DNA of 49,196 nt, taken from the NCBI GenBank assembly GCA_024278275.1, contig JAJRTN010000125.1, positions 1 through 49,196 on the forward strand, written 5' to 3'. The notes beneath the pieces are model-generated. The model searched no databases, was not told where the DNA came from, and saw only the letters and a program-made list of their open reading frames with translations. The DNA is from Candidatus Hydrogenedentota bacterium (GTDB lineage Bacteria > Hydrogenedentota > Hydrogenedentia > Hydrogenedentales > JAJRTN01). This document shows, piece by piece, positions 14,316 to 47,670 of this stretch; the stretch's first letter is position 1; each line of letters opens with the position of its first letter. The translations under genes and the position numbers were made by a program.

Positions 14316-14364
14316 TTACCCGTTTCCTTTGGCGTTTATTCTTCGTGCGGGCTGCAGAAAACCA

Positions 14365-28725: not shown

Positions 28726-28757
28726 CCTCCTCGTGGGTGCGGCACGACCGTGCTCCT

Positions 28758-31619
28758 TCAGTGTGGGACAAAATAGACCGAGTACTTGAACTGAATGTCC
28801 GATTCAACGCTTGCCGCAATGTCCAGTTCAAAAGACACCGGTCCCGGTGCCGGCGAAATGGTCATACGCCACGCTTGCCAGCAGACCGGATAGGTTTCCT
28901 GTCCAAGCACGGGCCGGGCGCTTAGCGACTGTTCACCCAATCGGCCCCGGACGGTGAAGTGCTCTCCAATGTCGTTCACCATGGATGCCTGCCCGTTCCG
29001 GGACATGGAGGCGGCAATAACCAGGGTTCCGCCGGAGGGCGCTTTGGACAGGCGACCCGAAATGCGTGTCTTGCCCGAAGTGTCTCCGTCGAGGTGCTGG
29101 ACAAGGATTTCTACCGGGCGGCTGGCCTCGGCGAAGCCCTTGGGTATGGGGCCCGCGTCAAACACGCGATCCAACGACGGCGGCTGCCCGGCGGGAACCA
29201 CTTCGAGCAGCACCACTTCAAAGGGTCTCAGGCTGATGGTGGCGCGGCTTCCAAAGTCCCTTTCTTCTCCCTTGAGCCGTGCCGGGGCGGGATACCACCG
29301 GTAGAGATCCCAGCGTTTACCGTCGGGAAGCCCCCATGCCGAATCCAGCTTAAGCGTTATCGCCGTGTCTCCCCAGACACAGTTGTTGATGGCGAGGAAG
29401 GCCCTTTTTCCGTCGGTGCAACGGTATCCATAGGGTTCGTCATTCCAGGGGTTACCCAGGATAAACCGCGGATTCCCGAAGCATTCGGGCCGTGCCTTGA
29501 GCAACCGGATGAAGACCGCGAGCTGTTTCCACTCCGGCTCGGACAACCGGTCGCGGCCGCTCCAGATCTGCGCGAGGAGGCTTCCCCGGCAGAGATCCAT
29601 GACGAAGCCTTCCTGCCATCGCTCCTTGCCGATAGAGCTGTTCCACCACCAGTCCGACAGCCAGATGCCCAGCGAGTCCTTGCCCAGTCTCGGTACCTCA
29701 TCGCAGTACCACTGGGCTTGATCCAGGCCAACGGTGACACTGTCGCGGGCATGGGGCGTGGGATACTCCGCTGGGGTAGAGGCTTCGATCATGACGCCCG
29801 GGTCAAAGAGCGTGTCCGCCCAGATCAGCCACCACGGCGACCGGGAACCCCAGTAAAGCATGATGAATACGTCCGGATTGGCCGCATCCCAGCGCTTGCA
29901 GGCATCCACCATGGCGCTAAACTGGGCTTCCGTCGAATATACTCCCGGAAGGTGTCCATGGCCAGGGCTGTCGCAGTTTCCGTACAGTCCATCCACTTTG
30001 ATCTGCCGGATGCCGTTCTTCCTGATCTGGTATTCGAGGCCCGAGGCAAAGACCGTGCGGTAAGGCTCCGCGGCGAGACAGTGGGCGTTCCCCGACGGCA
30101 TCTTGCAGGCGTTGAGGGCCGCATTCCGGCCCAGGCCCCAGCCGAGATAGGACGTGGAGACCCACAACCCCGGTGCAATGCCCAATTCATCCAGCGCGTT
30201 CTTGATCTTCGTAAAGCCATTGGGGAAGTAGCGCGGCTCGAACTGTCTGAAATTGCCCGCGTGGTCCAGCCAGAAATCGACACTGCACGTATCGAAGAGC
30301 CGCCCCGTTGCTTTCTGGCTTTCGGCCAGGCGAGCAAGGCTGTGCAGCACGTCCTCCTCGCTATTCTGGGAGAACCTTGGATTGTTGAAGTTATTCGGCT
30401 CCAGGGGCCAGGAACCGAAATTCGAGAAGATTGCGTAGGGCCGGTCGTGTCCCCGGACCACGCGTCGCATGTGCCGGCGCAGATAGGCGACAAAACCGGC
30501 CTTCCCCGAACCTGCTTTCGTCACGCCCATGATCACGTCGAAGGCGCGAAAGGGAACGCCCGGCTTCAGCACCGTCCCCGGGTATTGCCGGAGTAATGCA
30601 CGGCCATCGTGGCCCGTGGCCCATCCGGCGGGATGGGCCAGACTCAGGAAGAACTCGTTATCCAGGTACACGGGGAATCCCCGCTCACCGTCGGAAACCC
30701 GTGCGTCTGTGGGATAGTCTCCCAGGCGTGCGTGAAGCAGTCGCCGCGTTTCGGTTCCGGAATGGAGTATCTCCACGGATTTCCGCAACACGGGCGTTTC
30801 ATTGTTCCAGCGGTACGTCACCGTGGCCGAGATGGGCATGCCCCTGGCCGAAAAGCGGAAGACCGCCTCGTAACCATCTTCCTTCTGGTTGAACCTTCCC
30901 CGGGCGGCTTCCCATCGCGGCGTTTCCATGGGGACGCCAATGGTGAGGTACTTCTCGAAGGTTGCCGGCCATTGTATGGGGTCGGGGAGTCCCCGGGTGC
31001 CCCGTGGATCCAGTTCTTCCAGGCGGGGCGAACGGTCCGCAAGCCCTGAGAGTTCCGCAGCGATCTCGTTCTCCTCCCCAAAGCGCACATAGGAATGCAT
31101 GGGCGAGCCGGGCCCCAGGTCGATGACCAGGGGAGCGCGCCACCGTTCCGGCGCATCGCGCACGCCCACCTCGTGGCCGTTAAGCAGCACCCGCATGAAG
31201 CGGTAATCGTAGAGCCCGAATCCGCCCATCGTGAGTGAGAGCGGTTTGCCGCGGGCGTCGGCGGGGATAAGCACCGTGGCCGGGAGTCCGGGTAGCCAAA
31301 TCCGCGATTCGGCGGTGTCCAGATCGATCTCCACTTCACTTCCACCACCGAGGGATATGATCCGTCCCGTCAACCTGTTTTCCCACCGATCGGCGCGCAG
31401 CCCCGCGGACGTATCGAGGGAAAGCGTGAACAGGGGTGATCGTAACTCAACCTTCTGATCGTTTTTCATCACGTGAAATGCCTTCCCAACCGCCTGCGTG
31501 GCGGCGGGTCCCATCATGAGTACAAGGAAGAGCAAGCATATGCCGGGCCTGGAAAACCCGTTGACGCGCGGTCCGTTCTCTTCCCCGAAGATTTTGCCCG
31601 TTACACCCCGGCGCATCAT
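28758..31619 (-). CDS. putative large glycoside hydrolase (clan GH-D / alpha-galactosidase-like, uncertain)
   Basis: The start is at MMRRGVTGK.. with a signal peptide (ICLLFLVLMMGPAATQA). A central region (GIRQIKVDGLYGN) is reminiscent of a GH-D catalytic KxD motif. The family assignment is tentative. Confidence 0.45.
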   Translation of the reverse strand: MMRRGVTGKIFGEENGPRVNGFSRPGICLLFLVLMMGPAATQAVGKAFHVMKNDQKVELRSPLFTLSLDTSAGLRADRWENRLTGRIISLGGGSEVEIDLDTAESRIWLPGLPATVLIPADARGKPLSLTMGGFGLYDYRFMRVLLNGHEVGVRDAPERWRAPLVIDLGPGSPMHSYVRFGEENEIAAELSGLADRSPRLEELDPRGTRGLPDPIQWPATFEKYLTIGVPMETPRWEAARGRFNQKEDGYEAVFRFSARGMPISATVTYRWNNETPVLRKSVEILHSGTETRRLLHARLGDYPTDARVSDGERGFPVYLDNEFFLSLAHPAGWATGHDGRALLRQYPGTVLKPGVPFRAFDVIMGVTKAGSGKAGFVAYLRRHMRRVVRGHDRPYAIFSNFGSWPLEPNNFNNPRFSQNSEEDVLHSLARLAESQKATGRLFDTCSVDFWLDHAGNFRQFEPRYFPNGFTKIKNALDELGIAPGLWVSTSYLGWGLGRNAALNACKMPSGNAHCLAAEPYRTVFASGLEYQIRKNGIRQIKVDGLYGNCDSPGHGHLPGVYSTEAQFSAMVDACKRWDAANPDVFIMLYWGSRSPWWLIWADTLFDPGVMIEASTPAEYPTPHARDSVTVGLDQAQWYCDEVPRLGKDSLGIWLSDWWWNSSIGKERWQEGFVMDLCRGSLLAQIWSGRDRLSEPEWKQLAVFIRLLKARPECFGNPRFILGNPWNDEPYGYRCTDGKRAFLAINNCVWGDTAITLKLDSAWGLPDGKRWDLYRWYPAPARLKGEERDFGSRATISLRPFEVVLLEVVPAGQPPSLDRVFDAGPIPKGFAEASRPVEILVQHLDGDTSGKTRISGRLSKAPSGGTLVIAASMSRNGQASMVNDIGEHFTVRGRLGEQSLSARPVLGQETYPVCWQAWRMTISPAPGPVSFELDIAASVESDIQFKYSVYFVPH

Positions 31620-31790
31620 TTCACCTTGGCGGATCTGGCTTTCCCCGTTCATGCCCGGCCCCAGCGTGGCGGTATTCCAACATACCCATAGGGTTGTCGC
31701 GCCCTTCGATATCCGGTCCCGTCCGCGGAACTCGAAGCATTTCGAGTTCTCGGTGTGCATGCGTATCGGAACGGACATGACGGCAAATCC

Positions 31791-33995
31791 TCAGGGCTTC
31801 CGCAGGGTGAATGGCGTGTCCACGCGCAACGGGACCGGCGTATCCAGGGGTACGTCGGCGTGGTCTCGCGCGAGGGGAAACTTTGTTCGGGCGCCTTCCG
31901 CGATGATCGTCAGGATATGATCGCCCTCAACCACGCGGGAAAGGGCCAGGGAATAGCTGTTTTCTCGAATCCCATGGGCCAACAGGTTATTATCCAGCAG
32001 CAGCGTGAAGGAATCAGGCTTCTTTCCGGCCACTTCCCAACGCACCTCCAGGCTGTTCGCCGTCACTACCTGCCCGGGATTCGGCGGGTAAACAGCCAGT
32101 ACGGTGGTCTCCGGCTCCCGCTCCTTGTACAGGGCGATGAGTGCTTGAGCGACATTGAAGCTTTTATACCCCCATCCCCCGTCATCACCGCGATACCCGT
32201 CCGCGGTTAACGAGACGGGCTCGATGTCGTCGGAGAGTTCCACGCTGTAGGTGTCGCCGTAGAGGTTGCCGGGGTAGGGATAACCCTCAAGCTGGCCGGT
32301 GAACTCGTTCCACTGATGGAGCAGGACGAAGCGCGGTTTGTGCTTCAAAGCCGTTTTGAACGTGTGAATCAGCGTGGTACCGTTTCGGCGGCCCCATGCA
32401 TCATCGGCAAGCCACATACGTGAGCCAAAAAAGCCCGCGGAAGGTGTACAAACCTCCGCCACGCCATCGCGATAGGTGACCACCGGGTCCGGCGTCCCGT
32501 CCATCCAAGACCAGTAGCCGTGGCGGTCTACCTTCGTGAGCTGGAGTTGGGCGCCCATGTAGCGAATGGTGAAATGAGTATCGTCGATGGGGGTGTCGAA
32601 GGCTTCCCAGGCGGGAACGACGGTATTGTGCAGCAATACGATGAGCGGTTTCCCGTCCACCATCACCCACAGTCCTTTGAAGCGGGGATTTCGGATGAAG
32701 TGGTTGTGGAGCCATTCGAGCTCTTCGTTGACGGTCTCCGGGCTGTTAACGGGACCATTTCCGAGGAAGGGCATGATGACCAACTGGGGTGCGGGATAGC
32801 CTTCATCCCGGAGTTGCGCATACACCTCAAGCGTGACTTCGGTCGAATGAATCTGCAAGTTCGCCGCGTCCGAACGGTTCTCCCAATGCTGGCTGCCGTC
32901 TTCCGCGGGAGGGATATAGATGGGCCAGTCGGCGGAAATGAAGTCCACGCCCATGTCCATCAGCCAGAGGGCGTGCTGCCGGATAACGTCGGGGTTGTAG
33001 GATTCGTAGAGGCCCACCATGGGCACGGCCTGCGTGTTGTGCCAGTAGAACATCTCCTTGAAAAAGTAGCTGCCCCACTGCATGCCGACGAGATGGTCCG
33101 GGTCGCGCCGTGATGGGATCATTCGGCGGGTTACCTGCACGGTGATGGGTTCCGATACGGTGGCGTTCCCAGGAAGCGGTCTGCCTGCAAAGAGATCATC
33201 GCGCCGCACGCCCCCCGGCCAATCCTCGAAGTGAGCCGCTTTCCATACGGCATCCTGAAGCCTTCCCGGGACCCGAACGGGCTGTCCTTTTTCCACCGGT
33301 TCGGGCCAGGCGGCGGGTGGCGCCTCCCAGGCTTCCCAGCGGCGGTCGGTCACCAGGAGGCGTCGCCGGCCGTCGGTCATGTATTCCAGTTGGACCGCGA
33401 CACCCGCGATGCCGGTTCCCTTCTTCGCCTCCACGGCCAGCATATTGCCGCCGCGGCGGAAAAGCCCCGGCGCCACGGAAGTCGTCGTTGCCGAGTCGAT
33501 TCCTTTCGCCATGGCCAGAAGCGTTCCGTTCAGGTAAATACGCGCCGTGTGGTTTGCCGAAGCCCGGAGGCGCGCGGCATCGACCGGCGCTGTTTCCTGG
33601 AAGCGCGTGGCCAGGAAGGCATTTTCGCACGCGGCGTTCTTGGTCCAGACGATGCAGGTGTCCCTGAAACCGGGCAGGGCGCGCACCTGTACCGAGGCCG
33701 GGCCAACGTTTGGGAAGGGCAGGATGATTCGCCCGTGGCCCTCTTCGCCGGTAACCTCGTGCGCCCCCCAGCGACGCCCGTTTACATAAGCGAGAAGAAG
33801 ACAGGAGGCCAGCGGGGCGGCGGATCGGGCGTCGGAGACCTGAACGTCCAGCGACACGGAGCCGCCCATGGGCACGGTTGTTTTATCGGCGGCGACGTCA
33901 ATGCACACGGGCAACGTTTCCGAAAACGCCACGATAGTTCCTATCATCGCCAGACCGAGGGCGGCCGTGCATTGACGGACCATGGAGTATTGCAC
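31791..33995 (-). CDS. putative glycoside hydrolase (TIM-barrel GH-like), paralogue of 26389-28725
   Basis: A signal peptide is present (AALGLAMIGTIVAFS). Conserved blocks are shared with the 26389 gene (GLWVMVDGKPLIV vs WFRWEGKPLILA, and the YGDTYS region). Confidence 0.45.
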   Translation of the reverse strand: MQYSMVRQCTAALGLAMIGTIVAFSETLPVCIDVAADKTTVPMGGSVSLDVQVSDARSAAPLASCLLLAYVNGRRWGAHEVTGEEGHGRIILPFPNVGPASVQVRALPGFRDTCIVWTKNAACENAFLATRFQETAPVDAARLRASANHTARIYLNGTLLAMAKGIDSATTTSVAPGLFRRGGNMLAVEAKKGTGIAGVAVQLEYMTDGRRRLLVTDRRWEAWEAPPAAWPEPVEKGQPVRVPGRLQDAVWKAAHFEDWPGGVRRDDLFAGRPLPGNATVSEPITVQVTRRMIPSRRDPDHLVGMQWGSYFFKEMFYWHNTQAVPMVGLYESYNPDVIRQHALWLMDMGVDFISADWPIYIPPAEDGSQHWENRSDAANLQIHSTEVTLEVYAQLRDEGYPAPQLVIMPFLGNGPVNSPETVNEELEWLHNHFIRNPRFKGLWVMVDGKPLIVLLHNTVVPAWEAFDTPIDDTHFTIRYMGAQLQLTKVDRHGYWSWMDGTPDPVVTYRDGVAEVCTPSAGFFGSRMWLADDAWGRRNGTTLIHTFKTALKHKPRFVLLHQWNEFTGQLEGYPYPGNLYGDTYSVELSDDIEPVSLTADGYRGDDGGWGYKSFNVAQALIALYKEREPETTVLAVYPPNPGQVVTANSLEVRWEVAGKKPDSFTLLLDNNLLAHGIRENSYSLALSRVVEGDHILTIIAEGARTKFPLARDHADVPLDTPVPLRVDTPFTLRKP

Positions 33996-34176: not shown

Positions 34177-35265
34177 TCAGCCGCCTCCGCCAAAGACCGC
34201 GGACCAAAAGCTGAAGGAGTTGCCCACCGTGCCCACGATGCCGCCAATGTCGGAAGCATTGGCAATGGGGAATTTGCTCTTGAACTTGATGAATTCCACA
34301 TGGCCATCCATCCAGAGCACGTTGCATCCGCCGGGGACATGGTTGAAACGCATGATGCCCGTGTCCGCGGCGTGGGTCTGATCAATGCCGGCGGTGGCCA
34401 ACCATTTGTAGATGCCTTCCTCGGAAAAAGCGTCCATCATGATGGGCAAGGTGCTTTGCGCGATGGCCCCGGCCGCCGGGTTGTTGATGTCCGTGATAAA
34501 GAAACGCTCAATGCCGTCTTTCAGGCGGGGAAGGGTTGACGGCCACGGACTGCCATCGTCATCGACCTGCGGGCCGAAGATGGCAAAGATATGGTCCTGC
34601 ACATTGATGTCACTGTTCCAGGGAGCATAATTTCTGAGGTCCACCACGAAGTTGTTGAATTGACTGAAGGCGGTCCCGTCACAGCCTTGGTTGATCATCT
34701 CCTGTCCCGATGTCTGCGGGTTGTCGTAAAAGCCCGGGCGGGCATAGGAGATATTATAGGCCGCGCTGACCCCCCATAAGGTGGCCTCGGTTCGGGCCGC
34801 GTTGGGCACATACCAATACGAAACCGGTTGCGAAAGCATGAAGTTCAAACATGCCCGGTTGTTGTTTTGGCCCTGCGCGATGGTCGCAATGTCCTGAATC
34901 TGCTGGGCGAAATCGTCTTTCACGCCAAAGCGCTCTCCCCAGAGGTCGCCCCGGGGATCCGAAGGACAGACGGCAATGTTTGGATCCGTCCAGTAGTCCG
35001 GGTAGAGCACCTCGCCCGCGTAGGCCAGGTGTGCCGTCGTCCACGATGGGATGTTCACCGTGGAATGACCGGGATAGAGTCCGCCCCGGTCTTCGCCGGA
35101 ATACATCTTGAAGATGATTCCCCACTGCTTGAGGTTGTTGGCGCATGATGCGCGTCGTGCCGCCTCCCGCGCCCGCGCCAGGGCGGGCAGCAAGATGGCG
35201 GCCAGGATGCCAATAATGGCGATGACGACCAAGAGCTCGATGAGTGTAAAGCCTCTCTTGTTCAT
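34177..35265 (-). CDS. DUF1559 / H-X9-DG protein with prepilin-type N-terminal cleavage-methylation domain (type II secretion pseudopilin-like)
   Basis: The N-terminus ([47 protein letters not shown]) is the hallmark of this PVC-superphylum family. A perfect Shine-Dalgarno sequence (AAGGAGA) lies 5 nt before the ATG. Confidence 0.85.
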
Positions 35266-35342: not shown

Positions 35343-35498
35343 CGATTGTAACCCCGAAGGGATTTGCTGTCCTTAACAGAAGGGCCAAAAACTAGCACCA
35401 CGAGGTCAAGTGCTCCTGCGTCGGGCGGCAATAAACGGATCCGCCTGTTGGGCGAAGACGGAGCTCCCGGCGTGAGGGCGGTGGAGGAATGCGTAGCG

Positions 35499-36422
35499 AT
35501 GCGTGTTGATGCGACCCCCTTGTCCGGAGGGGGGCAGGCTTTTGTCCCGCACTCCGGCTTACGTCTTCATGGGGCGATGCGGTGTGTTGAAGCCGGAGAA
35601 ATCGGGGAACATGAGCACCCGTTTGGTGAACTGGTCCTGGTCCGCCAGGGGCGGGGAGTCCATCGTGTGCGGGGCTGGGAATACCCGCTTGGCCCGGGGG
35701 ATGTTTTCTACGTTCCCGTTGGTCACGCCCATGCGTACCCGGATGTGGACGAATTGCACGTGATGATTTTCGATTTTGATCCGGCCATCTACCTTCACCA
35801 GGTCCAGGAACTCACCCTGATGCCTGGCGCCCTCGGGCTGTTCGGGCCGGACTGGCCCCCCAATCTTTTGTATCATGGGCAAAAGTCTGTTTTTTGCGTC
35901 CATTTACAGGGTGAGGCGTGGGCGCAAGCGGAGAGCCTGGCCGAGTCGCTGTTAAGGTCCTGCGAGCATGATTCGCCGGAAAGACACACGGAGGTTCGTG
36001 CGTGGTTCGCCTTGCTGATCGTTTGTCTTTGCCGTTATTACCCGGAGCACGTATTGCCCACGGGCACCCGGAATGTACCGTTGGCGAAAGCATTGGCCTA
36101 CATCGAGGACCATTACGCCGACGCTCTGACCCTTGACGCGCTGTCCGGCGCGGCCTGTACGTCCCGAAGCTCGCTGCAGCGGGCCTTTCGGAAGCACCTG
36201 GCCTGCACGCCCATGGAATACGTCATGCGCCGCCGAATCGACCGCGCGCGGGAACTGCTTCTCTTTACGGACATGAGCATGACGGCCATTGGGGAAAGCA
36301 CGGGTTTTACCGACAGCAATCATTTTTCCCGGTGTTTTCGACGGTACGCCGGGGAGTCTCCCAGGATGTACCGGAACAAGAACCATGCCTTGGGTCCGGG
36401 TGTCCCCATTAACGATATGTAA
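35499..36422 (+). CDS. AraC-family transcriptional regulator (cupin N-domain plus HTH)
   Basis: Cupin motifs are present (HEHPFGELVLVRQGRG, YVPVGHAHAY). The two C-terminal HTH units read LTLDALSGAACTSRSSLQRAFRK and MTAIGESTGFTDSNHFSRCFRRYAGESP. The start is uncertain; the ORF opens at the TTG at 35364. Confidence 0.7.
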   Translation: MRVDATPLSGGGQAFVPHSGLRLHGAMRCVEAGEIGEHEHPFGELVLVRQGRGVHRVRGWEYPLGPGDVFYVPVGHAHAYPDVDELHVMIFDFDPAIYLHQVQELTLMPGALGLFGPDWPPNLLYHGQKSVFCVHLQGEAWAQAESLAESLLRSCEHDSPERHTEVRAWFALLIVCLCRYYPEHVLPTGTRNVPLAKALAYIEDHYADALTLDALSGAACTSRSSLQRAFRKHLACTPMEYVMRRRIDRARELLLFTDMSMTAIGESTGFTDSNHFSRCFRRYAGESPRMYRNKNHALGPGVPINDM

Positions 36423-36488: not shown

Positions 36489-37361
36489 CATATGAACGCT
36501 TCAGCCAACACGAAGGATTTGAACGGAAACTGCCTGGCCCGGCTTCGCGCCTGGACGAAACAGGGCAAGGGTTCCGTGCCGGCGATTGCCGCTTTTGTGC
36601 TGGAAAACCCCGAGCAGGCCCTGAACGTGACCATCAATGAATTCGCCTTGCGATCCAAGGCCGCCGTATCGTCGGTTTCCCGTTTTTGCACCACCATCGG
36701 CTATTCGGGTTACAAGGAGTTTCAACTGGATCTTGCCGCCTCGCTTGCCCAACAGCCGCCGTCCCTGGGGGTTTTCGATGCCCATGCCGCCCCCCATGAC
36801 ATCATGCACTATGTTTTTGAATGCAACCGGCGCAGCATCCGGGAAACGGAGAAGCTGATCAGCCGGGAAGTCTTTGTCGAAGTGGCCCGGTTGATCCATG
36901 AATCGCACCGGGTGTATGTGCTTGGCGTGGGCGCTTCGGGGCTGGTGGCCCGGCAGGCGGCCACGCGCTTCATGAGCCTGGGGCTCACGGCATCGGCGTT
37001 GACGGACCCCTATCTCCAGGTATTCGTGACGGAAAACCTGGGGAAAAGCGATGTCGTCATCGGCGTGAGTCACACCGGCTTGACCCGTTCGGTGGTGGAG
37101 AGCGTCGAGGCGGCGCGTACGTGCGCGGCGAGGGCGGTGGCTATTACGAACTACCCGCAATCATCCCTGGCCAAGGCCTGTGACTTTGTGCTGACGACCT
37201 CGTTCGAGTAGCGACGCGCCAACGCGGCGGTGTCCTCCTCGCATATTGCCCAACTGTGCCTGATCGATGCGCTGTACTTCGTCGTGGGAAGTTGGCGATC
37301 CCGTGGCGCCACCGCGTTGGCGGAGCTTGCCGAGAAGCGGGTGCAACGATTGCTTCGCTGA
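36489..37361 (+). pseudogene. RpiR/MurR-family regulator (HTH_6 + SIS domain) interrupted by an in-frame TAG at 37209-37211
   Basis: N-terminal HTH_6 reads INEFALRSKAAVSSVSRFCTTIGYSGYKEFQ. The SIS domain reads VYVLGVGASGLVARQAA...VVIGVSHTGLTRSVVESVEAARTCAARAVAITN. After TTSFE-TAG the same frame continues for 49 codons, encoding the expected SIS C-terminus (SSHIAQLCLIDALYFVV...). Read-through would give a 290-aa protein. Confidence 0.6.
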
Positions 37362-37396: not shown

Positions 37397-38746
37397 ATGT
37401 ACAAACGCTACTATGACCCCAACATTTTCCTCAACATGCTGGACGGAATAGATCTCGACAATCACGTGATCGCGTCCTATTACATGAAGGACCGCCTGGA
37501 GGGAATCAAGTTCCTCGACCACTTCTCGCTTGTTCAGGCCATGGGTCTGGAGGGCTCGACCGGCACCTGGGAAAAGGTGGCGGAGGATACGGATGAGTTG
37601 CGCGCCGCCATGTCCAGCCGCATGGTGGGGTATCACGAGATCCCCGGGGAAGATGAATACACGAAGGCGGCCGTGGTCCAACTGGCCTTCCCCATCCGCG
37701 CCTGGGGCGACAACCTGCCCATGATGCTCCTGGCCGTGGCGGGCAACTGCTTCGCCTACTCCAAGAACCTCATCATGACGGATATATTCATCGGTAAGAA
37801 CCTGCTGAAAAAGTTCCAGGGGCCGAAGTTCGGGGTGCCGGGCGTGCGGGAATTGACGGGGGTCAAGGAACGTCCGCTCTCGCTGCACATCATCAAGCCG
37901 AAGATGGGCATGACCCCCGAGCAGACGGCCAACCAGGTCTACCAGACCGCCCTGGGGGGCGCCGACATGTGCAAGGACGACGAGATGCTCGCCGACGCCT
38001 ACAACAGCACGGCGGAACAGCGCGTGCCCGTCATCATGGACGCCATCAACCGGGCGGCCGACAAGATGGGCAAGAAAATGATCTACCTGTGCAGCATCAC
38101 CGATGAAAGCGACAAGATGGTCGCCAAGGCGAAACGGGCCATCGAACTGGGCGCAAACGGCCTGCTGGTGGCCTATTCGGCCGGTCTGCCCGCGTTGCGG
38201 CGCCTCACGTCGGACCCCGATATCACGGTTCCGGTCATGCTGCACGCTTCCCACATGATCGCCATGATGAAGCAGATGGCCTGGCCCGTGCTGGCCAAGT
38301 TGTGTCGCCTCTGCGGGGCGGACCTGATGCTGACGCCCACCTACTGGTCCTCCATCCCCATGGTGTCCATGGAAGAGGGGTTGCGGACTTCTTTCATGCA
38401 GCTCGCCCCCTGGGGGTATATCAAGCCGACTTTCCCCATGCCCTGTGCGGGCGTCTATCCCGGCCTGGCGCCCATCATCATCGGCGAATACGGCACGGAC
38501 ATTGTCATCCCCGCGGGCGGCGGCATGTTGGGCCACCCCGACGGGTACACGGCGGGCGCGAAATCCTGGCAACAGGCCATTGCCGGCGCGCTGTCGGAAG
38601 ACGACTTCATCGAGTTTGCGAAGAAACCCGAAAATGGCGAGTTGCGCCGCGCCATCGAGCATTGGGGTTACATCGAGCGTCCCAAGGCGCCGTGGCTGCG
38701 GGTGGCTCCCGAGTTCCATCCCAAGCCCATGAAGTTTGATGATTGA
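37397..38746 (+). CDS. RuBisCO large-subunit-like protein (form IV RLP)
   Basis: A strong Shine-Dalgarno sequence (AGGAAGGAAG) precedes the start. RuBisCO large-chain motifs are present: IKPKMGMTPEQ (cf. IKPKLGLS, Lys175) and GGADMCKDDEML (cf. GGLDFTKDDE, the carbamylated Lys201 position). The protein is 449 aa and lies 35 nt downstream of RpiR. Confidence 0.85.
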   Translation: MYKRYYDPNIFLNMLDGIDLDNHVIASYYMKDRLEGIKFLDHFSLVQAMGLEGSTGTWEKVAEDTDELRAAMSSRMVGYHEIPGEDEYTKAAVVQLAFPIRAWGDNLPMMLLAVAGNCFAYSKNLIMTDIFIGKNLLKKFQGPKFGVPGVRELTGVKERPLSLHIIKPKMGMTPEQTANQVYQTALGGADMCKDDEMLADAYNSTAEQRVPVIMDAINRAADKMGKKMIYLCSITDESDKMVAKAKRAIELGANGLLVAYSAGLPALRRLTSDPDITVPVMLHASHMIAMMKQMAWPVLAKLCRLCGADLMLTPTYWSSIPMVSMEEGLRTSFMQLAPWGYIKPTFPMPCAGVYPGLAPIIIGEYGTDIVIPAGGGMLGHPDGYTAGAKSWQQAIAGALSEDDFIEFAKKPENGELRRAIEHWGYIERPKAPWLRVAPEFHPKPMKFDD

Positions 38747-39298
38747 ATCCGGCACGGCCGACCATCGTTTTTTTGACGACCCAAAAGTGCGGCAGGAAAA
38801 GCGGTAACCGTTTACGGCATCCCGCGCCCGCCCTTGGACAATGGGGCCGGTTGGGACCGATAGAGGGAGGATAGAGCTTTGTTTTCTTATGTGACGCTGT
38901 GGAGTCCGTAGGACTTCAATGGAAAAGCGCCGCGGCGCAGACCGCCGTATTATGCTGAAATGACGGTGTTCGCCGTGACATTGGATGGCTTGAGGCCTAC
39001 CGGCCTCACAGCCGAGGGCGGCTGTGCCACATTCAAGTGAAGACTGCGCCGTGAACAGTTACGCTTTCACGGGGATAACGATCCTGGTGATGTTGCCGGT
39101 AACGTTCTTGGCGCACGGCTTCGCGGGTCACGTGACAATTCAGGCGAGACGCCCGCGATAGTCTCTTACCAGTACATTTCTTTACAAATAGGCACGAAAA
39201 GGTGATTGCATCTTTTCCTTGGCCCCAGGGTTCTCCGTGGAGACAAAAACCTGGTTCCGGCTTGGCCGGGTTAGGCGTTCCCGCGGGGGACCGTGGGA

Positions 39299-40801
39299 AT
39301 GAGGAAGAAAAGGGCTGACGCAAAAGTGAAGCGGTATCTCGCATTTGACCTGGGCGCCGAAAGCGGGCGTTGCATGTTGGGCCAACTTGACGGCGGCACG
39401 TTGGAAATCACGGAATTGCTCCGTTTCCCCAACGGTCCGGTCAACGTGAACGGCACCCTCTATTGGGATATCCTCGGCATCTACAAGAATATGCTGGAGG
39501 GGTTGTCCCTCTTCGCGCGGCGGTACGGACCGGAAGCCGATGGCATCGGCGTGGATAGCTGGGCCCTGGACTTCGGCCTCCTGGACAAGCAGGACAACCT
39601 TTTACAGAATCCCGTTTGCTACCGGGACGGGCGCACCGAGGGCATGGTGGAGGCGGTGTCGGCCACGGTGGAGCCCGGGGAAATTTTTCGTCGCACGGGC
39701 CTCAACGTGAACGCCATTCACACGTTGTTCCAACTGAAGGCCGTCGCCGAACGCAGCCCGGAGGTGCTCGAACGGACGGCTTGCCTGCTCAACATCCCCA
39801 GTTTGCTGGCCTGCTTCCTGTGCGGGGCGAAGGTGGCGGAGCACACCCTCGCGGGGACCACGCAACTCTACGATCCCCGCACCCGCGCATGGGACGCCGA
39901 ACTGCTGGGAATGCTCGATCTGCCGGTGGAGATTCTTCCGGAGATCGTGGAACCCGGCACGCTCTTGGGTGAATTGAGCGAGGCGGCGAAGGCCGCCACC
40001 GGCCTGACGCATGCGCCCGTTTTTGCCACCTGCACACACGACACGGCGGCGGCCGTGGCCTCGGTGCCGGGGGAGGGCGAGGATTGGGCGTTTATCAGTT
40101 CTGGCACGTGGTCGGTCTTCGGCACGCTCTCGGCCGAAGTGATCACGTCGGACCGTGCCCGCGCGGCGGGCGTGTGCAACGAGCCGGCATTCGGCGGAAA
40201 CTTCGTCTGCAAGAACCTGATGGGCCTGTGGCTGCTTCAACAGGCGCGGGCCTCATGGCGGCGCCAGGGGAAGGAACTCTCCTACGGGGAACTCGCGGCG
40301 GCGGCGTGGGAAGCACCCAAAGGGGGGCCGCTGGTATCGGTGGCGCACCCCGGTTTCCTCGTCCCGTCCGACATGGTGGAAGAGATTCAGCGCTTCTGCC
40401 GGGCCACCGGACAGACCGCGCCGGATTCCGTGCCCGAGGTAACCCGCTGCATTCTTGAGAGCCTGGCGCTCTGCTATCGGCAAAGCCTGGAGGATTTGAG
40501 GGCTGTCACGGGAAAAAGTATCAACCGGATTCACGTGGTGGGTGGCGGTTCACTCAACCAACCCCTGTGCCGGTTTACCGCGGCGGCTTGTGGCGTACCC
40601 GTGGCCGCGGGCCCGAAGCAGGCCACCGCCGCGGGGAACCTGCTGACCCAGGCCGCCGCCGAACTGGGCGGTCCGGAGGGAATCCGGTCCGTCGTAAAAA
40701 ACTCATTCCCCCTGAAAACATACGGGCCGGTCGATGACGACGGGTACTGGAAGAAGCGTTACGAAACGTATCTGCGAATCGAAGCATCGGGGCTTTCCTG
40801 A
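39299..40801 (+). CDS. rhaB: FGGY-family sugar kinase, best match rhamnulokinase
   Basis: Conserved blocks resemble E. coli RhaB (comparison from memory): AFDLGAESGRCML, GVDSWALDFGLLD, YRDGRTEG, NLMGLWLLQ, CILESLALCY and IHVVGGGSLN. The start is at the internal ATG, not the GTG at 39293. Confidence 0.75.
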   Translation: MRKKRADAKVKRYLAFDLGAESGRCMLGQLDGGTLEITELLRFPNGPVNVNGTLYWDILGIYKNMLEGLSLFARRYGPEADGIGVDSWALDFGLLDKQDNLLQNPVCYRDGRTEGMVEAVSATVEPGEIFRRTGLNVNAIHTLFQLKAVAERSPEVLERTACLLNIPSLLACFLCGAKVAEHTLAGTTQLYDPRTRAWDAELLGMLDLPVEILPEIVEPGTLLGELSEAAKAATGLTHAPVFATCTHDTAAAVASVPGEGEDWAFISSGTWSVFGTLSAEVITSDRARAAGVCNEPAFGGNFVCKNLMGLWLLQQARASWRRQGKELSYGELAAAAWEAPKGGPLVSVAHPGFLVPSDMVEEIQRFCRATGQTAPDSVPEVTRCILESLALCYRQSLEDLRAVTGKSINRIHVVGGGSLNQPLCRFTAAACGVPVAAGPKQATAAGNLLTQAAAELGGPEGIRSVVKNSFPLKTYGPVDDDGYWKKRYETYLRIEASGLS

Positions 40802-40816
40802 ACGGAGGACCAAGCC

Positions 40817-41797
40817 ATGTTGAAGGACTACTACTTTGGCGCCTGTCTGCCGACCTTTGGCAACTGCGCGGACCGCTATTGCCAAGGCGGCTACAAGCGT
40901 GATTTCACGATGGACGAGATGCTGGACCGCTCGCTGGAAGTGGGCAGCATCGACGGGCTGGAGTTGGTGGGCAACTGGCATGTCAACGATGGGAATGTGC
41001 GCGAAGTGGCGCAAAAGTTCAGGGACAGAAACCTGAAGATCCCCATGCTGGTGCCCGATCTCTGGACACAGGCGAAATGGGGCAAGGGCAGCCTCGCGGC
41101 GTCGGACGCCGCGACCCGGCAGGCCGCCATCGACGAAGTGCGGAAGGTCATGGACTGGGCCGCCGAACTCGATTGTCCCTACGTGGATGTCTGGCCGGGG
41201 CAGGATGGCTTCGACTACCCCTTCCAGGCGGACTACGTTTCGGCCTGGTCGTGGCTGCGTGAGGGCATCGCCGCGTGCGCGGGCCACAACGACCAGGTGA
41301 AGGTGCTGGTGGAGTACAAGCTCAAGGAGCCCCGCCGTCACTGCTTTATCGACAGCGCGGCGCGGACGCTGATGCTCCTGGACGGCATCGATAACACGGG
41401 GGTGCTCCTGGACGTGGGTCATGCCATGGCGGCGGGAGAAAACATCGCGGAGGCCGTGGCATTTCTGAACGCCTACGGCAAGCTGGATTACCTGCACCTG
41501 AACGACAACTACCGCGCCTGGGACGACGACATGATTTTCGGTTCGGTGAATCTCATCGAGGATCTGGAATTGCTGTACTGGCTCAAGCGTGTCGGGTACC
41601 AGGGCTGGCTCACCCTCGACATCTTTCCCTTCCGCATCGACGGTGTCGATGCGGCGAAGGCGTGTCAAAGCTGGATAGACGGCCTGCTCAACGCGCTGGA
41701 GAAGGTTGGCCAGGCGTCTTTTGACGTGGCCGTGGCCTCGGGTGATCCCGTGCAGGCGGGCGTCATTATCCGGGAAGCGCTTGGACTGGGCCGGTAG
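40817..41797 (+). CDS. sugar (phosphate) isomerase/epimerase, xylose-isomerase-like TIM barrel
   Basis: The protein is 326 aa with a pattern of acidic and His metal ligands typical of AP-endonuclease-2 / xylose-isomerase-like TIM barrels (VLVEYKLKEP, LLDVGH, LHLNDN). The stop is TAG. Confidence 0.65.
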   Translation: MLKDYYFGACLPTFGNCADRYCQGGYKRDFTMDEMLDRSLEVGSIDGLELVGNWHVNDGNVREVAQKFRDRNLKIPMLVPDLWTQAKWGKGSLAASDAATRQAAIDEVRKVMDWAAELDCPYVDVWPGQDGFDYPFQADYVSAWSWLREGIAACAGHNDQVKVLVEYKLKEPRRHCFIDSAARTLMLLDGIDNTGVLLDVGHAMAAGENIAEAVAFLNAYGKLDYLHLNDNYRAWDDDMIFGSVNLIEDLELLYWLKRVGYQGWLTLDIFPFRIDGVDAAKACQSWIDGLLNALEKVGQASFDVAVASGDPVQAGVIIREALGLGR

Positions 41798-41818
41798 GCG
41801 GAAGGGGATTATCGAATC

Positions 41819-42076
41819 ATGGCGACAGCAATCAAGATCCCGGACATGGGAACCACCGTGGACACCATGGTCCTGGAGACCTGGCTTGTCGAGGAAGGTG
41901 AAACCATCGACCGCGGCGACGTGATCGCCGAGATCCAGACCGACAAGGCCCTCACGGACCTGGAGTCTTTCGCGCGCGGCACGTTACTGAAGAAAATGGT
42001 GACCGAAGGCGCCGAGGTTCAGGTGGGGGACGTGATCGCCTACCTGGGAGAACCCGGCGAGGAAATCCCCGGATGA
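41819..42076 (+). CDS. stand-alone lipoyl-attachment domain protein (E2-type lipoyl carrier, 85 aa)
   Basis: The lipoyl-lysine motif is AEIQTDKALTDLES, within a biotinyl/lipoyl hybrid-barrel pattern (IKIPDMG...GETIDRGDVIAEI). No E2 catalytic domain follows. It is in the same reading frame as the upstream isomerase, separated by TAG plus 7 codons. Confidence 0.75.
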   Translation: MATAIKIPDMGTTVDTMVLETWLVEEGETIDRGDVIAEIQTDKALTDLESFARGTLLKKMVTEGAEVQVGDVIAYLGEPGEEIPG

Positions 42077-42096
42077 CCCCGGGAAAGGAAGAATAC

Positions 42097-43062
42097 ATGC
42101 CGTCGAAGTATGAGCCGACTTTTCTGCTGGACCTGTACCGGAAGATGGTCCTCATCCGGCAGTTCGAGGACCGGGTGAAGTTCCTCTTTCTGGAGGGCAT
42201 CATGCCGGGCACCATCCACCAGTACCAGGGACAGGAGGCGATAGCCGCGGGGGTTTGCGCCGCGCTGAATACTGACGACATCATCACCAGCACCCACCGT
42301 CCCCATGGCCACGCGCTGGCGAAGGGCCTTAGCGCCGAATCGCTGCTGCACGAGCTTTTCGGGAAACCTTCCGGGTGTTGTTGTGGCAAGGGGGGCTCCA
42401 TGCACGTGGGCGACCTGGAAAAGGGGATGCTGCCCGCCATTGCCATCGTGGGCGGAGGCGTGCCCATCGCCACGGGCTGCGCCCTGGCCTTCAAGATGCG
42501 CGGCGAAAAACGGGTGGCGGTCAGCTTTTCGGGCGACGGCGCCGTGAACGAGGGCGCCTTCCACGAGGGCGTCAACATGGGCGCCATCTGGGATCTCCCC
42601 GTCATTTACGTCATCGAGAACAACCTGTATTCGGCCTCCACGCCCATCGCCGACACGGTGAAGCTTGAAAAGGTTTCCGACCGGGCCGCGGGCTACGGCA
42701 TACCGGGGGTCACGGTGGACGGCAACGATGTGGTCGCCATGTATGAAGCGGCGCGGGGCGCGGTGGAACGGGCACGCAACGGGGAGGGGCCCACCTTGAT
42801 CGAGGCTGTCACCTACCGCATCACGGGCCATTCCCGGCGAGACCCCTGCAACTATCAGCCCAAGGAGCAGCGCCGGGAGGCCAGGAAGCGGGAACCCATC
42901 AGGCGATTCGCCAGGTACCTGGTGGAGAAGGGGCTGGTCACCGAGGCCGAGCTGGACATGTTCCGCGAGGAGATTGACGCAGAGATCGAACGCGCCGTGG
43001 AATCCGCCCAGGCCGCGCCGGACCCGGCTCCCGAGTTCGCCCTGGAAGGGCTCTGGGCCTGA
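42097..43062 (+). CDS. TPP-dependent dehydrogenase E1 component, alpha subunit (AcoA/PdhA-like)
   Basis: The TPP-binding motif reads GDGAVNEGAFHEGVNMGAIWDLPVIYVIENN. The phosphorylation-loop-like region reads YRITGHSRRD. The start at 42097 has a strong Shine-Dalgarno sequence (GGAAAGGAAG). An alternative ATG at 42073 overlaps the upstream stop by 4 nt. Confidence 0.8.
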   Translation: MPSKYEPTFLLDLYRKMVLIRQFEDRVKFLFLEGIMPGTIHQYQGQEAIAAGVCAALNTDDIITSTHRPHGHALAKGLSAESLLHELFGKPSGCCCGKGGSMHVGDLEKGMLPAIAIVGGGVPIATGCALAFKMRGEKRVAVSFSGDGAVNEGAFHEGVNMGAIWDLPVIYVIENNLYSASTPIADTVKLEKVSDRAAGYGIPGVTVDGNDVVAMYEAARGAVERARNGEGPTLIEAVTYRITGHSRRDPCNYQPKEQRREARKREPIRRFARYLVEKGLVTEAELDMFREEIDAEIERAVESAQAAPDPAPEFALEGLWA

Positions 43063-43108
43063 GATCACCGGAACATTACGCGGATTACACGGGAAGAGAG
43101 GTACGGAA

Positions 43109-44125
43109 TTGGCACGATTGAGCATTGCCGAAGCGCTCCGACAGACGCTTCGTGAAGAAATGAACCGGGACGAGCGGGTTTTCTGCATCGGGGAAGACAT
43201 CGCCATTCCCGGCGGCTGGGGCGGCGCTTTCACGGTGACACTGGGCCTGGAGGAGGATTTCAAGGACCGCATGATCAACACGCCCATCTCCGAAGCGGGC
43301 TTCACGGGCGTGGCCCTCGGCGCGGCGCTCATGGGGCTGCGTCCCGTGGCGGACGTGCAGTACGGGGACTTTCTCCTGTGCGCCATGGACCAGATGGTGA
43401 ACCAGGTCGCGAAGATGCGCTACATGTCCGGCGGCAAGATCAAGGTGCCCTTCGTCATGCGCGCGCCCACGGGGGCGACGGGCCGCGGCACGCAGCACGC
43501 GCAAAACCTGGAAAGCATGTTCTTGCAGGCGCCCGGATTCAAGATCGCCTGTCCCGCCACGGCCTACGATGCGGTGGGGCTTTTGCGTGCCGCCATCCGC
43601 GACGACAACCCGGTACTCCTTTTCGAGCACAAGCTGCTCTACGGCTCCAAGGGCGCCCGGGCCGAAACGGGCGCCATGGATGCGTCGAGCGAGATTCCCG
43701 AAGAGGATTACGTCGTGCCGCTGGGCAAGGGCATCGTGCGCCGCGAAGGGAGCGACATCACGGTGATCGCCCCGCTGCTCATGATGCACCGGGCCCTGGA
43801 GGCCGCGGAGATCCTGGCGGATGAAGGCGTATCGGTCGAAGTCATCGACCCGCGCAGTCTCGTGCCCTTCGATTGGGAACTGGTGGAAACCTCGGTGCGG
43901 AAGACCGGGCGCCTCGTGGTGGCCCAGGAAGGTCCCTTGCGCGGAGGGCTGTGCGGCGACATTGCCGCCGAGATGGGCGAACGCTGCTTTGATGCGCTCA
44001 AGGCCCCCGTGCTCCGGGTGGCCTCGCCGGACATCCCCGCGCCCTTCGCCCCGGCGATGGAGGCCTTCTACCGCCCTGACGCGGCGCGGATCGTGGATGC
44101 GGTCCGGAAAACCGTAAAGGATTGA
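43109..44125 (+). CDS. TPP-dependent dehydrogenase E1 component, beta subunit (transketolase-like Pyr and C domains)
   Basis: A TTG start is inferred from the conserved N-terminus (ARLSIAEALRQTLREEMNRDERVFCIGEDI). Further motifs are GFTGVALGAALMGLRPV and MRAPTGATGRG. Confidence 0.75.
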   Translation: MARLSIAEALRQTLREEMNRDERVFCIGEDIAIPGGWGGAFTVTLGLEEDFKDRMINTPISEAGFTGVALGAALMGLRPVADVQYGDFLLCAMDQMVNQVAKMRYMSGGKIKVPFVMRAPTGATGRGTQHAQNLESMFLQAPGFKIACPATAYDAVGLLRAAIRDDNPVLLFEHKLLYGSKGARAETGAMDASSEIPEEDYVVPLGKGIVRREGSDITVIAPLLMMHRALEAAEILADEGVSVEVIDPRSLVPFDWELVETSVRKTGRLVVAQEGPLRGGLCGDIAAEMGERCFDALKAPVLRVASPDIPAPFAPAMEAFYRPDAARIVDAVRKTVKD

Positions 44126-44135
44126 GGGGACAAGC

Positions 44136-44741
44136 ATGGCGGAACTGCGCAGCTATATCGTGATCGACAGTTTGCAGGAGCAGTTGGCGGCGTTCATGGC
44201 CTCCACGGTGGTAGGCTACATGCCCGTGGCGGGCATGGCGGCCCTTTTCGTGGAGGTGGCGCCCGGCATGGAGATCGTGCGCCTCCTCGACGTGGCCGTG
44301 AAGGCCACCAACACGCGGCCCGCCATCCAGGTGGTCGAGCGCAGCTTCGGCACCCTCGAAGTTCACTCCGAAAACCAGGGCGACGTTCGGCAGGCGGGCC
44401 GGGCCGTGCTCGACGCCATGGGGCTTACCGAGGCCGACCGGGACGAACCCCGGGTGGCCTCGTCCACGGTCATTCGGCACATCGATCCCTACCAGGCCGC
44501 GCTGATCAACAAGAGCCGGCAGGGGAGCATGTTGCTTGCGGGGCAGACGGTGTTCATACTGGAGACCCAGCCGGCGTTGTACGCCGTGCTGGCGGCCAAC
44601 TAGGCGGAAAAGGCAAGCCGCGTCACGTTGGTGGATATCCGCCCCTTCGGCAATTTCGGCCGGCTATACCTGGCCGGGGAAGAAGCGGACGTGGTCGTGG
44701 GAAGCGAGGCCGCCATCGCGGCCCTGGAAACATGCCGCTAG
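44136..44741 (+). pseudogene. tandem BMC-domain shell protein (BMC-T-like), reading frame interrupted by in-frame TAG at 44601-44603
   Basis: A GAGGGGA Shine-Dalgarno sequence precedes the start. The first, divergent BMC-like domain reads AALFVEVAPGMEIVRLLDVAVKATNTRPAIQVVERSFGTLEVHSENQGDVRQAGRAVLDAMG. After ...ILETQPALYAVLAAN-TAG the same frame continues AEKASRVTLVDIRPFGNFGRLYLAGEEADVVVGSEAAIAALE. This completes a canonical BMC fold (cf. [27 protein letters not shown]...[13 protein letters not shown]). As annotated to the first TAG the product is 155 aa; read-through would give 201 aa. Confidence 0.5.
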
Positions 44742-44777
44742 CGGTTCATTACGGATGGAAAACCGGGAGATCAGGTC

Positions 44778-45071
44778 ATGGCTGATGCGTTGGGTATGAT
44801 TGAATGCAAGGGATTCGCGGCGATGGTTGAGGCATCGGACGCGATGGTGAAGGCCGCCAAGGTGGAACTGGTGGGCTACGAGAAGATCGGCGGCGGCTAC
44901 GTGACGGCCATCGTGCGCGGCGACGTGGCCGCGGTCAAGGCGGCCTGCGAGGCGGGCGAACGGGGCGCTCGTGCCGTGGGCGAGGTCGTTTCGGTGCATA
45001 TCATCCCGCGGCCCCACGACAACGTGGATTCCGCACTCCCCCTGGGCCGCCCCCAGGCCGTCAAGAAATAG
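44778..45071 (+). CDS. BMC-H hexameric shell protein (PduA/EutM-like)
   Basis: The sequence [64 protein letters not shown]...VHIIPRPH is a textbook Pfam00936 match. The stop is TAG. Confidence 0.9.
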
Positions 45072-45114
45072 CGCCCCGGGCGACACACGCACGATCCCAT
45101 GGAGATAAAGCCCC

Positions 45115-45426
45115 ATGCAAATTGGACGCGTTATCGGGACGGTCGTCTCGACCGCGAAGGAACCGGCGCTGGAAGGCCGTAGATTCCTGCTGGTCCAGTT
45201 CCTCGACCTCGACGCACGAACAACTTCCTCCTACGTGGTGGCGGTGGATGCCGTCGGCGCGGGCACGGGCGAGGTGGTTCTCGTCGCCACGGGCAGTTCC
45301 GCGCGCCAGACGGAGACCACGAGCAATCGGCCTTGCGACGCGGTTGTCATGGCCATTATCGACTCGTGGGACGTCCATGACGAGGTGAAGTGGCGCAAGG
45401 CCGATGATACGCCGGGAGACGGGTGA
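45115..45426 (+). CDS. BMC-P vertex protein (EutN/CcmL/PduN family), copy 1
   Basis: The N-terminus is MQIGRVIGTVVSTAK. Further motifs are FLLVQ and VAVDAVGAGTGEVVLVATGSSAR. Confidence 0.85.
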   Translation: MQIGRVIGTVVSTAKEPALEGRRFLLVQFLDLDARTTSSYVVAVDAVGAGTGEVVLVATGSSARQTETTSNRPCDAVVMAIIDSWDVHDEVKWRKADDTPGDG

Positions 45427-46823
45427 TGCCTGTTTCTCCCAACGACATAGAGCAGGCCGTTCGTGAAGTCCTCAAGCGAATCGAGGGCGAAGGTGAAACC
45501 CCCGGCCCGGTGTCGTCTCCGGCGGTGGATGACGCGGTGGAACGCGCGCGCCGCGCCTACGACGCCTACTGCGGCATGGGCCTCAACAAGCGCCATGAGA
45601 TGGTCGCCGCCATGCGGGAAGCGGCCAAGGCCCATGTGAAGACCTTCGCTGCGGATGCCGTGCGCGAAACCGGGCTCGGGCGGGTCGAGGACAAGATCCG
45701 CAAGAACCTGCTGGTCATCGTGAAAACGCCCGGCCCGGAAATACTCACCCCCGCCGCGCAAACAGGCGACCATGGCTTGATGCTGACGGAGCGCGCCCCA
45801 CACGGGGTTATCGGATCCATCACCCCGTGTACCAATCCCACCGAAACGGTGATCAACAACGCCATCAGCATGGTGAGCGGCGGAAACGGCGTGGTCTTCA
45901 ACGCCCATCCCGCCGCGGCCAAGTGCTCACAGGAGTGCATCCGGGTGCTGTCGGAGGCCATCGTCGCCGCGGGCGGACCGCCCGACCTGGTCGTGGGCGT
46001 GGAACAGCCCACCATAGAGACCGCCAGGGCCCTCATGGGGAGTCCCGGCGTGGCCCTCCTGTGTGTTACCGGCGGCGCGGCCGTGGTGAAGGCCGCCATG
46101 CTGTCCGGCAAGAAAGTGGTCGCGGCCGGCCCCGGCAATCCGCCGGTCGTCGTCGATGAGACGGCGGACCTGGCGAAGGCCGCGCGCGCCACGGTCCAGG
46201 GCGCGTCCCTGGACAACAACATCATCTGCGTTTCCGAGAAGGAGGCGGTCGTGGTCGATGCCGTGGCCGATGCCTTCAAACGGCATATGATGGAGGAGGG
46301 CTGTGTCGAGGTCTCCGGTCGCGACCGCGACCGGCTCTGCGACCTGATCTTCGCGTCCCGCGACGGCAACCGGGGCGTAATGAACAAGGATCTGATCGGC
46401 AAGGACGCCAGTGTCATACTGGACCGGATAGGCATCCGCGCCGCGCCGGAAACGCGCCTTGTCATTATGGACGTTCCGGCGGATCATCCGCTCCCCTGGA
46501 CCGAGCAACTCATGCCGGTCTTCCCCATCGTTCGCGTTTCCGACGTGGACGCGGCCATTGGCCTGGCCCTTCGCTACGAGGGCGGCCGACGGCATACCGC
46601 CGTCATGCACTCGCGCAATATCGACAAACTCAGCAAGATGGCCCGCCTGGCCAACTGTTCCATTTACGTGAAGAACGGTTCGTCCCTGGCGGGGCTCGGC
46701 ATGGGGGGCGAAGGCTACACCTCTTTCACGATTGCCAGCCCCACCGGCGAGGGGCTCACCACCGCGGTGAGTTTCACCCGCCTGCGGCGATGCACCCTCG
46801 TGGACGCCTTCAGGATCATATGA
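45426..46823 (+). CDS. CoA-acylating aldehyde dehydrogenase (PduP/EutE family) with N-terminal encapsulation-peptide-like helix
   Basis: The start overlaps the BMC-P stop (GTGATG). The N-terminal amphipathic segment DIEQAVREVLKRIEG is followed by a Gly/Pro-rich linker. The catalytic Cys region reads DNNIICVSEKE, and EGYTSFTIASPTGEG is also present. Confidence 0.85.
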   Translation: MPVSPNDIEQAVREVLKRIEGEGETPGPVSSPAVDDAVERARRAYDAYCGMGLNKRHEMVAAMREAAKAHVKTFAADAVRETGLGRVEDKIRKNLLVIVKTPGPEILTPAAQTGDHGLMLTERAPHGVIGSITPCTNPTETVINNAISMVSGGNGVVFNAHPAAAKCSQECIRVLSEAIVAAGGPPDLVVGVEQPTIETARALMGSPGVALLCVTGGAAVVKAAMLSGKKVVAAGPGNPPVVVDETADLAKAARATVQGASLDNNIICVSEKEAVVVDAVADAFKRHMMEEGCVEVSGRDRDRLCDLIFASRDGNRGVMNKDLIGKDASVILDRIGIRAAPETRLVIMDVPADHPLPWTEQLMPVFPIVRVSDVDAAIGLALRYEGGRRHTAVMHSRNIDKLSKMARLANCSIYVKNGSSLAGLGMGGEGYTSFTIASPTGEGLTTAVSFTRLRRCTLVDAFRII

Positions 46824-47386: not shown

Positions 47387-47670
47387 AACCGGTGATTCCC
47401 GCGCGCGTCATAGGCAGACTCGTTCCGGCCGCCACGCTGGCGGCCTTCAAGGGCGTTCCCTTTCTCATCGTGCAACCGGTGGACGAACACCTCCAGGACC
47501 GCGGCGCTCCGAAAGTGGCCTGCGACGCCATCGGGGCCAACGTGGGCGAAGTGGTGTTCATGGCACAGGGCGGCGAGGCGACCTTTCCGCTTCCGGAGCC
47601 CTTCAACCCCTCGGACACCACCATCGTGGCCATCGTGGACGAAGTCACCCCGGCCGGAGAAACGTCATGA
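47383..47670 (+). CDS. BMC-P vertex protein (EutN/CcmL family), copy 2
   Basis: A GTG start overlaps the BMC-T stop (GTGA). Motifs are IPARVIGRLVPAAT, FLIVQPV and VACDAIGANVGEVVFMAQGGEA. Confidence 0.75.
   Translation: MKPVIPARVIGRLVPAATLAAFKGVPFLIVQPVDEHLQDRGAPKVACDAIGANVGEVVFMAQGGEATFPLPEPFNPSDTTIVAIVDEVTPAGETS

Follow-up and report, generated by a model that had tools for sequence, protein, structure and literature searches.

Two in-frame amber codons at ancestral glutamate sites in an RLP and microcompartment operon of a Candidatus Hydrogenedentota bacterium

RpiR/MurR regulators with solved structures, among them Escherichia coli MurR (7en5), Vibrio vulnificus NanR (4ivn) and the Pseudomonas entries 8ju9 and 8k3b, combine an HTH_6 with a SIS domain. 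Double-stacking shell proteins of the CsoS1D-like BMC-T^dp type carry a CsoS1D_N and a BMC domain and are known from PVM-like, HO and SPU microcompartment loci (Sutter et al. 2021, PMC8217296). Both architectures are found together in the stretch of DNA analyzed here, a contig of 49,196 nucleotides from a Candidatus Hydrogenedentota bacterium, hereafter referred to as the window. Its rpiR gene lies, like its orthologues, directly upstream of a sugar-catabolic operon, and its BMC-T gene is accompanied, as in known BMC loci, by BMC-H, three EutN, aldehyde dehydrogenase and class II aldolase genes; the locus is of the PVM-like or HO type, an aldolase plus aldehyde-dehydrogenase microcompartment. 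Each of the two genes nevertheless departs from its relatives by an in-frame TAG. Unlike the solved regulators, rpiR is broken at codon 240, with a product predicted to lack the AAVSSS loop and the last two helices that are retained by all solved relatives and, except for one fragment (P0086), by all homologues examined. Unlike its intact 201-aa orthologues, the BMC-T gene has its stop at codon 156, within the second BMC domain. Young nonsense pseudogenes in accessory catabolic operons have a comparable appearance, namely a single-base stop absent from relatives and undecayed flanks, here with two hits in one functional unit.

Translation of the rpiR frame (36492-37361) runs from an ATG at 36492 through 239 codons ending in ...DFVLTTSFE to TAG at 37209-37211, and continues in the same frame for 49 sense codons (RRANAAVSSSHIAQLCLIDALYFVVGSWRSRGATALAELAEKRVQRLLR) to a closing TGA at 37359-37361, which leaves 35 nt before the RLP start codon (ATG 37397). 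The first-pass annotation had described this same layout and had taken the frame past the TAG for the missing end of the SIS domain, and profile searches bear it out: attaching the tail extends the Pfam SIS match from positions 2-104 to positions 2-129 of 131 and lowers its E-value from 2.3e-15 to 6.3e-18. The N-terminal rpiR-type HTH_6 domain is present (PF01418, E = 8e-12, residues 31-88), and rpiR encodes no complete SIS domain in one open frame, as profile positions 105-129 fall 3' of the TAG. The interrupted gene is made up of three parts:

36492-37208, + strand: 5' part of rpiR, 239 codons, with HTH_6 and SIS profile positions 2-104 (Pfam); orthologues P0002, P0003 and P0004 have the same start
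37209-37211, + strand: in-frame TAG in place of an ancestral Glu codon, GAG>TAG by one G>T, from the DNA alignment with loci L001, L002 and L003
37212-37361, + strand: rpiR tail beyond the stop, 49 codons and TGA, with the AAVSSS loop and the last two SIS helices

We compared this frame with its orthologues and found the same extent throughout. The nearest RpiR homologues (P0002, P0003 and P0004; 77%, 74% and 66% identity, 289-293 aa) start and end where the interrupted frame does, are each followed by an RLP gene starting MYKRYYDP, and carry Glu at the TAG site, encoded by GAG, GAA and GAG, respectively. The orthologues in loci L001-L004, 66-92% identical to the window gene, also lie directly upstream of the RLP gene, and the closest of them, in L004, shares 92% amino acid identity over 149 alignable codons, tail included. 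Orthologues are about 289 aa long with a shared end, LLR*, which is also where the interrupted frame closes. The window gene belongs to the RpiR/MurR family on the grounds of domain content, homology and synteny, and its tail is true coding sequence rather than a chance open frame. A 43-aa ORF starts at GTG 37230 inside the tail and could in principle yield the tail as a split protein, for which we found no evidence.

At the position of the TAG, the orthologous loci encode Glu in 12 of 12 cases (8 GAG, 4 GAA) and an internal stop in none. No RpiR homologue ends there; the shorter ones lack the N-terminus or are fragments (one of them, P0086, is cut at about residue 199), which rules out a natural short RpiR isoform. 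The orthologues do not end naturally at this site, as the first-pass annotation had allowed for, and run to full length with Glu in its place. The uniform Glu and the absence of any homologue ending at the TAG mark it as a lineage-specific, single G>T change, GAG>TAG, in rpiR.

In an AlphaFold2 model of RpiR derived from the alignment (mean pLDDT 86.8), the last beta-strand spans 232-235 and residue 240 lies in the loop that follows it; the helices at 251-268 and 271-288, both confident in the model, come after the TAG. The tail carries a nearly invariant AAVSSS motif with an invariant S250, and the truncation point falls just before this loop. Four PDB relatives (4ivn, 8ju9, 8k3b and 7en5; family matches with E = 1e-22 to 4e-14) align through the truncated region. 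A product ending at residue 239 would therefore retain the HTH together with the greater part of the SIS sheet, and would be left without the AAVSSS loop, the two C-terminal helices and part of the phosphosugar site. Given that every solved relative keeps this loop and both helices, the SIS fold suggests that RpiR 1-239 is most likely misfolded or unstable, or else unresponsive to its phosphosugar effector. The truncated regulator may accordingly act as a null repressor, with the derepression of the locus that the first-pass annotation had supposed, or as a non-inducible one, with locked repression. A fresh nonsense mutation removing the last SIS helix had been among the first-pass suggestions; a fresh nonsense mutation fits best with the unanimous Glu, the single G>T and the undecayed tail, and the model indicates a loss of two helices rather than one. 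Directly upstream of rpiR, on the same strand, lies a gene for an AraC-family regulator (AraC_binding/cupin and HTH_18; 35364-36422), a second potential regulator of the locus that could matter if RpiR is inactive.

The operon as a whole is syntenic with that of L004 (ENA k141_1559022, the same as JGI Ga0272444_10006339) at about 80% DNA identity, with a common gene order of rpiR, RLP, FGGY kinase, isomerase, lipoyl, E1 alpha, E1 beta, BMC-T, BMC-H, EutN, aldehyde dehydrogenase, BMC-T, EutN, EutN and class II aldolase. Searching the window with the L004 proteins (tblastn) recovered each gene in a single frame at 73-96% amino acid identity, with two TAGs as the only internal stops and no frameshifts or indels in the 12-kb operon. 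A codon-usage log-odds scan of all window stops in six frames likewise detected coding on both sides without a new gene start at these two TAGs only. The genes following rpiR are:

37397-38746, + strand: RLP gene, intact, 449 aa, 94% identity to L004 in tblastn with no stops; the L004 protein matches Pfam RuBisCO_large
39326-44125, + strand: FGGY kinase, AP_endonuc_2-type sugar-phosphate isomerase, lipoyl-domain protein, E1 alpha and E1 beta, intact
44136-44600, + strand: 5' part of BMC-T (CsoS1D-like, tandem BMC domain), 155 codons
44601-44603, + strand: second in-frame TAG, GAG>TAG at the nearly invariant Glu of an AANEAEKA motif
44604-44741, + strand: 3' part of BMC-T, 45 codons and the natural TAG, with the rest of the second BMC domain and the same end as P0121 and L004
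44778-48688, + strand: BMC-H, EutN, aldehyde dehydrogenase, second BMC-T, two more EutN and class II aldolase, intact

The BMC-T interruption, overlooked in the first-pass annotation and obtained by checking all TAG-terminated frames for downstream coding, reads ...ALYAVLAAN-TAG(44601-44603)-AEKASRVTLVDIRPFGNFGRLYLAGEEADVVVGSEAAIAALETCR-TAG. Homologues of this protein are 200-215 aa long with the CsoS1D_N and BMC architecture, the best match being 95% identical and 201 aa in length, and nearly all of those with a named source belong to Candidatus Hydrogenedentes. The TAG site is occupied by Glu in every aligned homologue, and the codon is GAG in L004 and in two other Hydrogenedentes loci (L167 and L168). 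Translation of the interrupted gene would end within the first helix of the second BMC domain, and its product would be unable to form a pseudohexameric shell tile. Thus, the operon is damaged at two points about 7 kb apart, and at both of them a TAG replaces the orthologues' sense codon, at a Glu and by GAG>TAG.

Other apparent read-through frames turned up by the same check (isomerase into lipoyl, BMC-T into BMC-H, and 14016-14315 into 13254-13973) were rejected as adjacent genes that share a frame and have their own starts. The natural TAGs of the isomerase and BMC-T genes (41795-41821 and 44739-44780) are in frame with the lipoyl and BMC-H genes, so read-through there would give isomerase-lipoyl and BMC-T-BMC-H fusions; this frame sharing looks coincidental, and the same pairs are out of frame in L004. 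The gap between the RLP and FGGY kinase genes spans about 580 nt (38747-39325) without a convincing ORF or an Rfam match, compared with about 200 nt in L004.

Among the loci compared, the RLP and BMC modules are joined only in the window and in L004. More distant relatives (L106, L110, L126 and L128) have the cluster from RLP to E1 beta without BMC genes within 10-kb flanks, and L167 and L168 have the cluster from BMC-T to aldolase alone, behind an aminotransferase gene. The operon (37397-48688 in the window, 1-11559 in L004) therefore appears to have arisen by the fusion of two modules in this lineage. In L168 ('contig_68358', 13869-14427) the gene calls split the second BMC-T into two ORFs, 65 and 130 aa long, that overlap, which suggests a frameshift, possibly from an assembly indel error. 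Elsewhere in the window, on the minus strand at 34177-35265, lies a gene for a 362-aa protein with a prepilin-type cleavage/methylation N-terminus, of a kind abundant in the PVC group and related phyla. It adjoins large genes without a Pfam match (26389-33995) and sulfatase, GH3 and BNR genes, a neighborhood that suggests polysaccharide degradation.

Internal stops are rare in these gene families, with 1 in 255 gene copies on other contigs and 2 in 15 in the window (Fisher's exact test, P = 0.008). The single other case is an in-frame TAG in E1 beta on a peatland metagenome contig (L094, about 3568-3570), at a position where the window has Leu. Relaxed or reversed selection on a single operon would be expected to cluster stops in this way. 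We then asked how far the genes had decayed relative to L004, and detected no relaxed selection after the stops, either as raised dN/dS or as further lesions: dN/dS was 0.031 before and 0.032 after the TAG in rpiR, and 0.031 before and 0.042 after the TAG in BMC-T. At 1719 outgroup-conserved residues the window carries 43 unique changes and L004, its sister lineage, 46. Those of the window are mostly conservative and transition-dominated, with one C>A and with the BMC-T stop as the sole G>T; the two stops therefore stand outside any visible G>T mutational bias, and no general G>T error or mutator signature is seen at these residues. Synonymous sites are saturated between the window and L004 (dS about 0.9-1.5). 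Since dN/dS is the same on both sides of the stops over so long a divergence, the stops must be very recent, unless the tails are still translated; from these counts we estimate that they arose within less than about the last 5-7% of the branch. If rpiR and BMC-T are pseudogenes, they are very young.

Taken together, the two TAGs are probably real, lineage-specific and very recent nonsense substitutions that mark an early loss of function, a reading that we hold with moderate confidence. The operon would then have been caught at the start of functional loss, with the regulator and a shell tile struck and the enzymes intact, and the loss-of-function alleles would either have drifted in after the pathway became dispensable or have been selected; recent nonsense hits of either origin explain why both stops fall in one operon. 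On this basis the window rpiR would be best filed as a young nonsense pseudogene or loss-of-function allele. What counts against recent nonsense mutation is the repetition of an identical path. Across the 3782 codons of the operon genes there are 993 nonsense paths, so that a stop results from about 3% of single-base changes made at random, and the chance of the exact GAG>TAG path occurring twice is 0.7-1.8% under simple mutation models, or about 8% for any one nonsense path twice (sum of squares over the nonsense-path table). Pure neutral decay would also be expected to leave tens of missense changes, and as there is no such excess, either extreme recency or selection for loss is required, and prolonged neutral decay is disfavored. 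Compared with other young nonsense pseudogenes, the window case is thus unusually 'clean', with the same GAG>TAG path twice and no missense or indel load, and this cleanness leaves room for selected loss, for an artefact or for suppression.

An error in the metagenome-assembled contig, whether from sequencing, assembly or polishing, would mean that the true bases are GAG at both sites, and we consider this unlikely while still assigning it an appreciable share. The species is known from this contig alone: each of the three protein clusters consulted has one member only, and a collection of 5.8 billion proteins contained no same-species sequence, the best matches being 77% identical for RpiR and 95% for BMC-T (on L004), so that nothing corroborates the two T bases. 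Both changes are G>T, as arises from oxidised guanine; that the same change occurs twice with no other explanation hints at a systematic cause, and the remaining sequence looks fully functional, as if the genes were intact. Set against this, the small fraction of random changes that create stops means that two nonsense errors would imply dozens of other errors in the operon, where we found neither indels or frameshifts nor an excess of window-unique changes at conserved residues. The sequence contexts of the two sites, GAG-[G>T]AG-CGA and AAC-[G>T]AG-GCG, share only the codon. Artefacts of 8-oxoG induced by shearing have been reported in the context CGG>CTG, which neither site matches. The contig quality also looks high, and genes in the other 36 kb of the window mostly give near-complete Pfam domain matches. 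The sequencing error proposed by the first-pass annotation is therefore improbable as a general process acting on the contig, and survives as the limited share given above.

Programmed recoding, in which regulated stop read-through or pyrrolysine insertion would set a ratio of short to long RpiR, draws its sole support from the intact downstream frame and is in our view extremely improbable. It is largely refuted by the lack of conservation, given that none of the 12 orthologous loci has the stop and no homologue ends at it, and the orthologous residue is an ordinary Glu rather than a specialised position. No stable RNA structure lies 3' of either TAG (folding z = +1.17 and -0.66, no better than at the orthologous sites bearing GAG), an Rfam scan of the window gave no match, and a promoter and terminator scan with an inverted-repeat search around rpiR and RLP revealed nothing above chance. 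Programmed read-through, the remaining first-pass suggestion, finds no support in these results, in the lack of a tRNA gene in the window or in the normal termination of neighboring genes at TAG.

The same features bear on amber suppression, in which UAG would be partly read as Glu (e.g., by a tRNA-Glu with a CUC-to-CUA anticodon change) while still serving as a terminator, so that full-length RpiR and BMC-T are made. To our knowledge, no TAG-to-Glu decoding has been described in bacteria. A literature search on amber suppression yielded eukaryotic and engineered cases only, including the trypanosomatid Blastocrithidia nonstop, which reads UAR as Glu (PMC12153298). The window recalls that organism and the anticodon-mutant suppressors of laboratory E. 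coli sup strains in that its in-frame TAGs sit where relatives have one particular amino acid, here Glu, with selection intact downstream. Two stops at Glu sites derived from GAG are the pattern predicted by a Glu-inserting suppressor and are unlikely by chance, but two sites are too few to establish a consistent pattern, given the roughly 8% any-path chance noted above. Purifying selection is undiminished after both TAGs, and no relaxation of constraint is seen in the window lineage. Three operon genes (RLP, FGGY kinase and lipoyl) end in TGA in the window and in TAG in L004, a weak and non-significant hint of TAG avoidance, and the corresponding counts of TAG terminators among the operon genes (3 of 15 in the window, 6 of 15 in L004) are too small to interpret. 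In contrast to the amber-suppression systems, TAG terminates genes in the same operon (isomerase, BMC-T and BMC-H), each at the residue where its L004 counterpart stops, and the pattern comprises two sites in a single operon. Beyond the operon, TAG ends a complete 99-aa gene at 14016-14315, and one window gene ends in TAGTAA. About 8 of about 36 window genes end in TAG, so TAG terminators are not depleted, and termination at conserved ends rules out wholesale TAG reassignment. No tRNA gene, and hence no suppressor, is encoded within the 49,196-nt window, and a genome-wide property explains less well than operon-specific decay why both TAGs lie in one operon and the other 37 kb has none. We therefore regard suppression as very unlikely; if it were true, functional genes could accept GAG>TAG changes, and the two 'interrupted' genes would both yield complete proteins.

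Recent nonsense mutation thus remains the preferred reading, and the most likely meaning of the two stops is an ordinary one, with the paired GAG>TAG in one operon as a genuine oddity. For annotation, real stops would mean that neither a functional BMC nor a functional RLP pathway should be credited to this genome on the strength of this locus. What the locus would offer instead is a view of an RLP and microcompartment sugar-catabolic operon at the first step of its inactivation, and with it a modest case, taken from nature, of the way in which accessory operons are lost.
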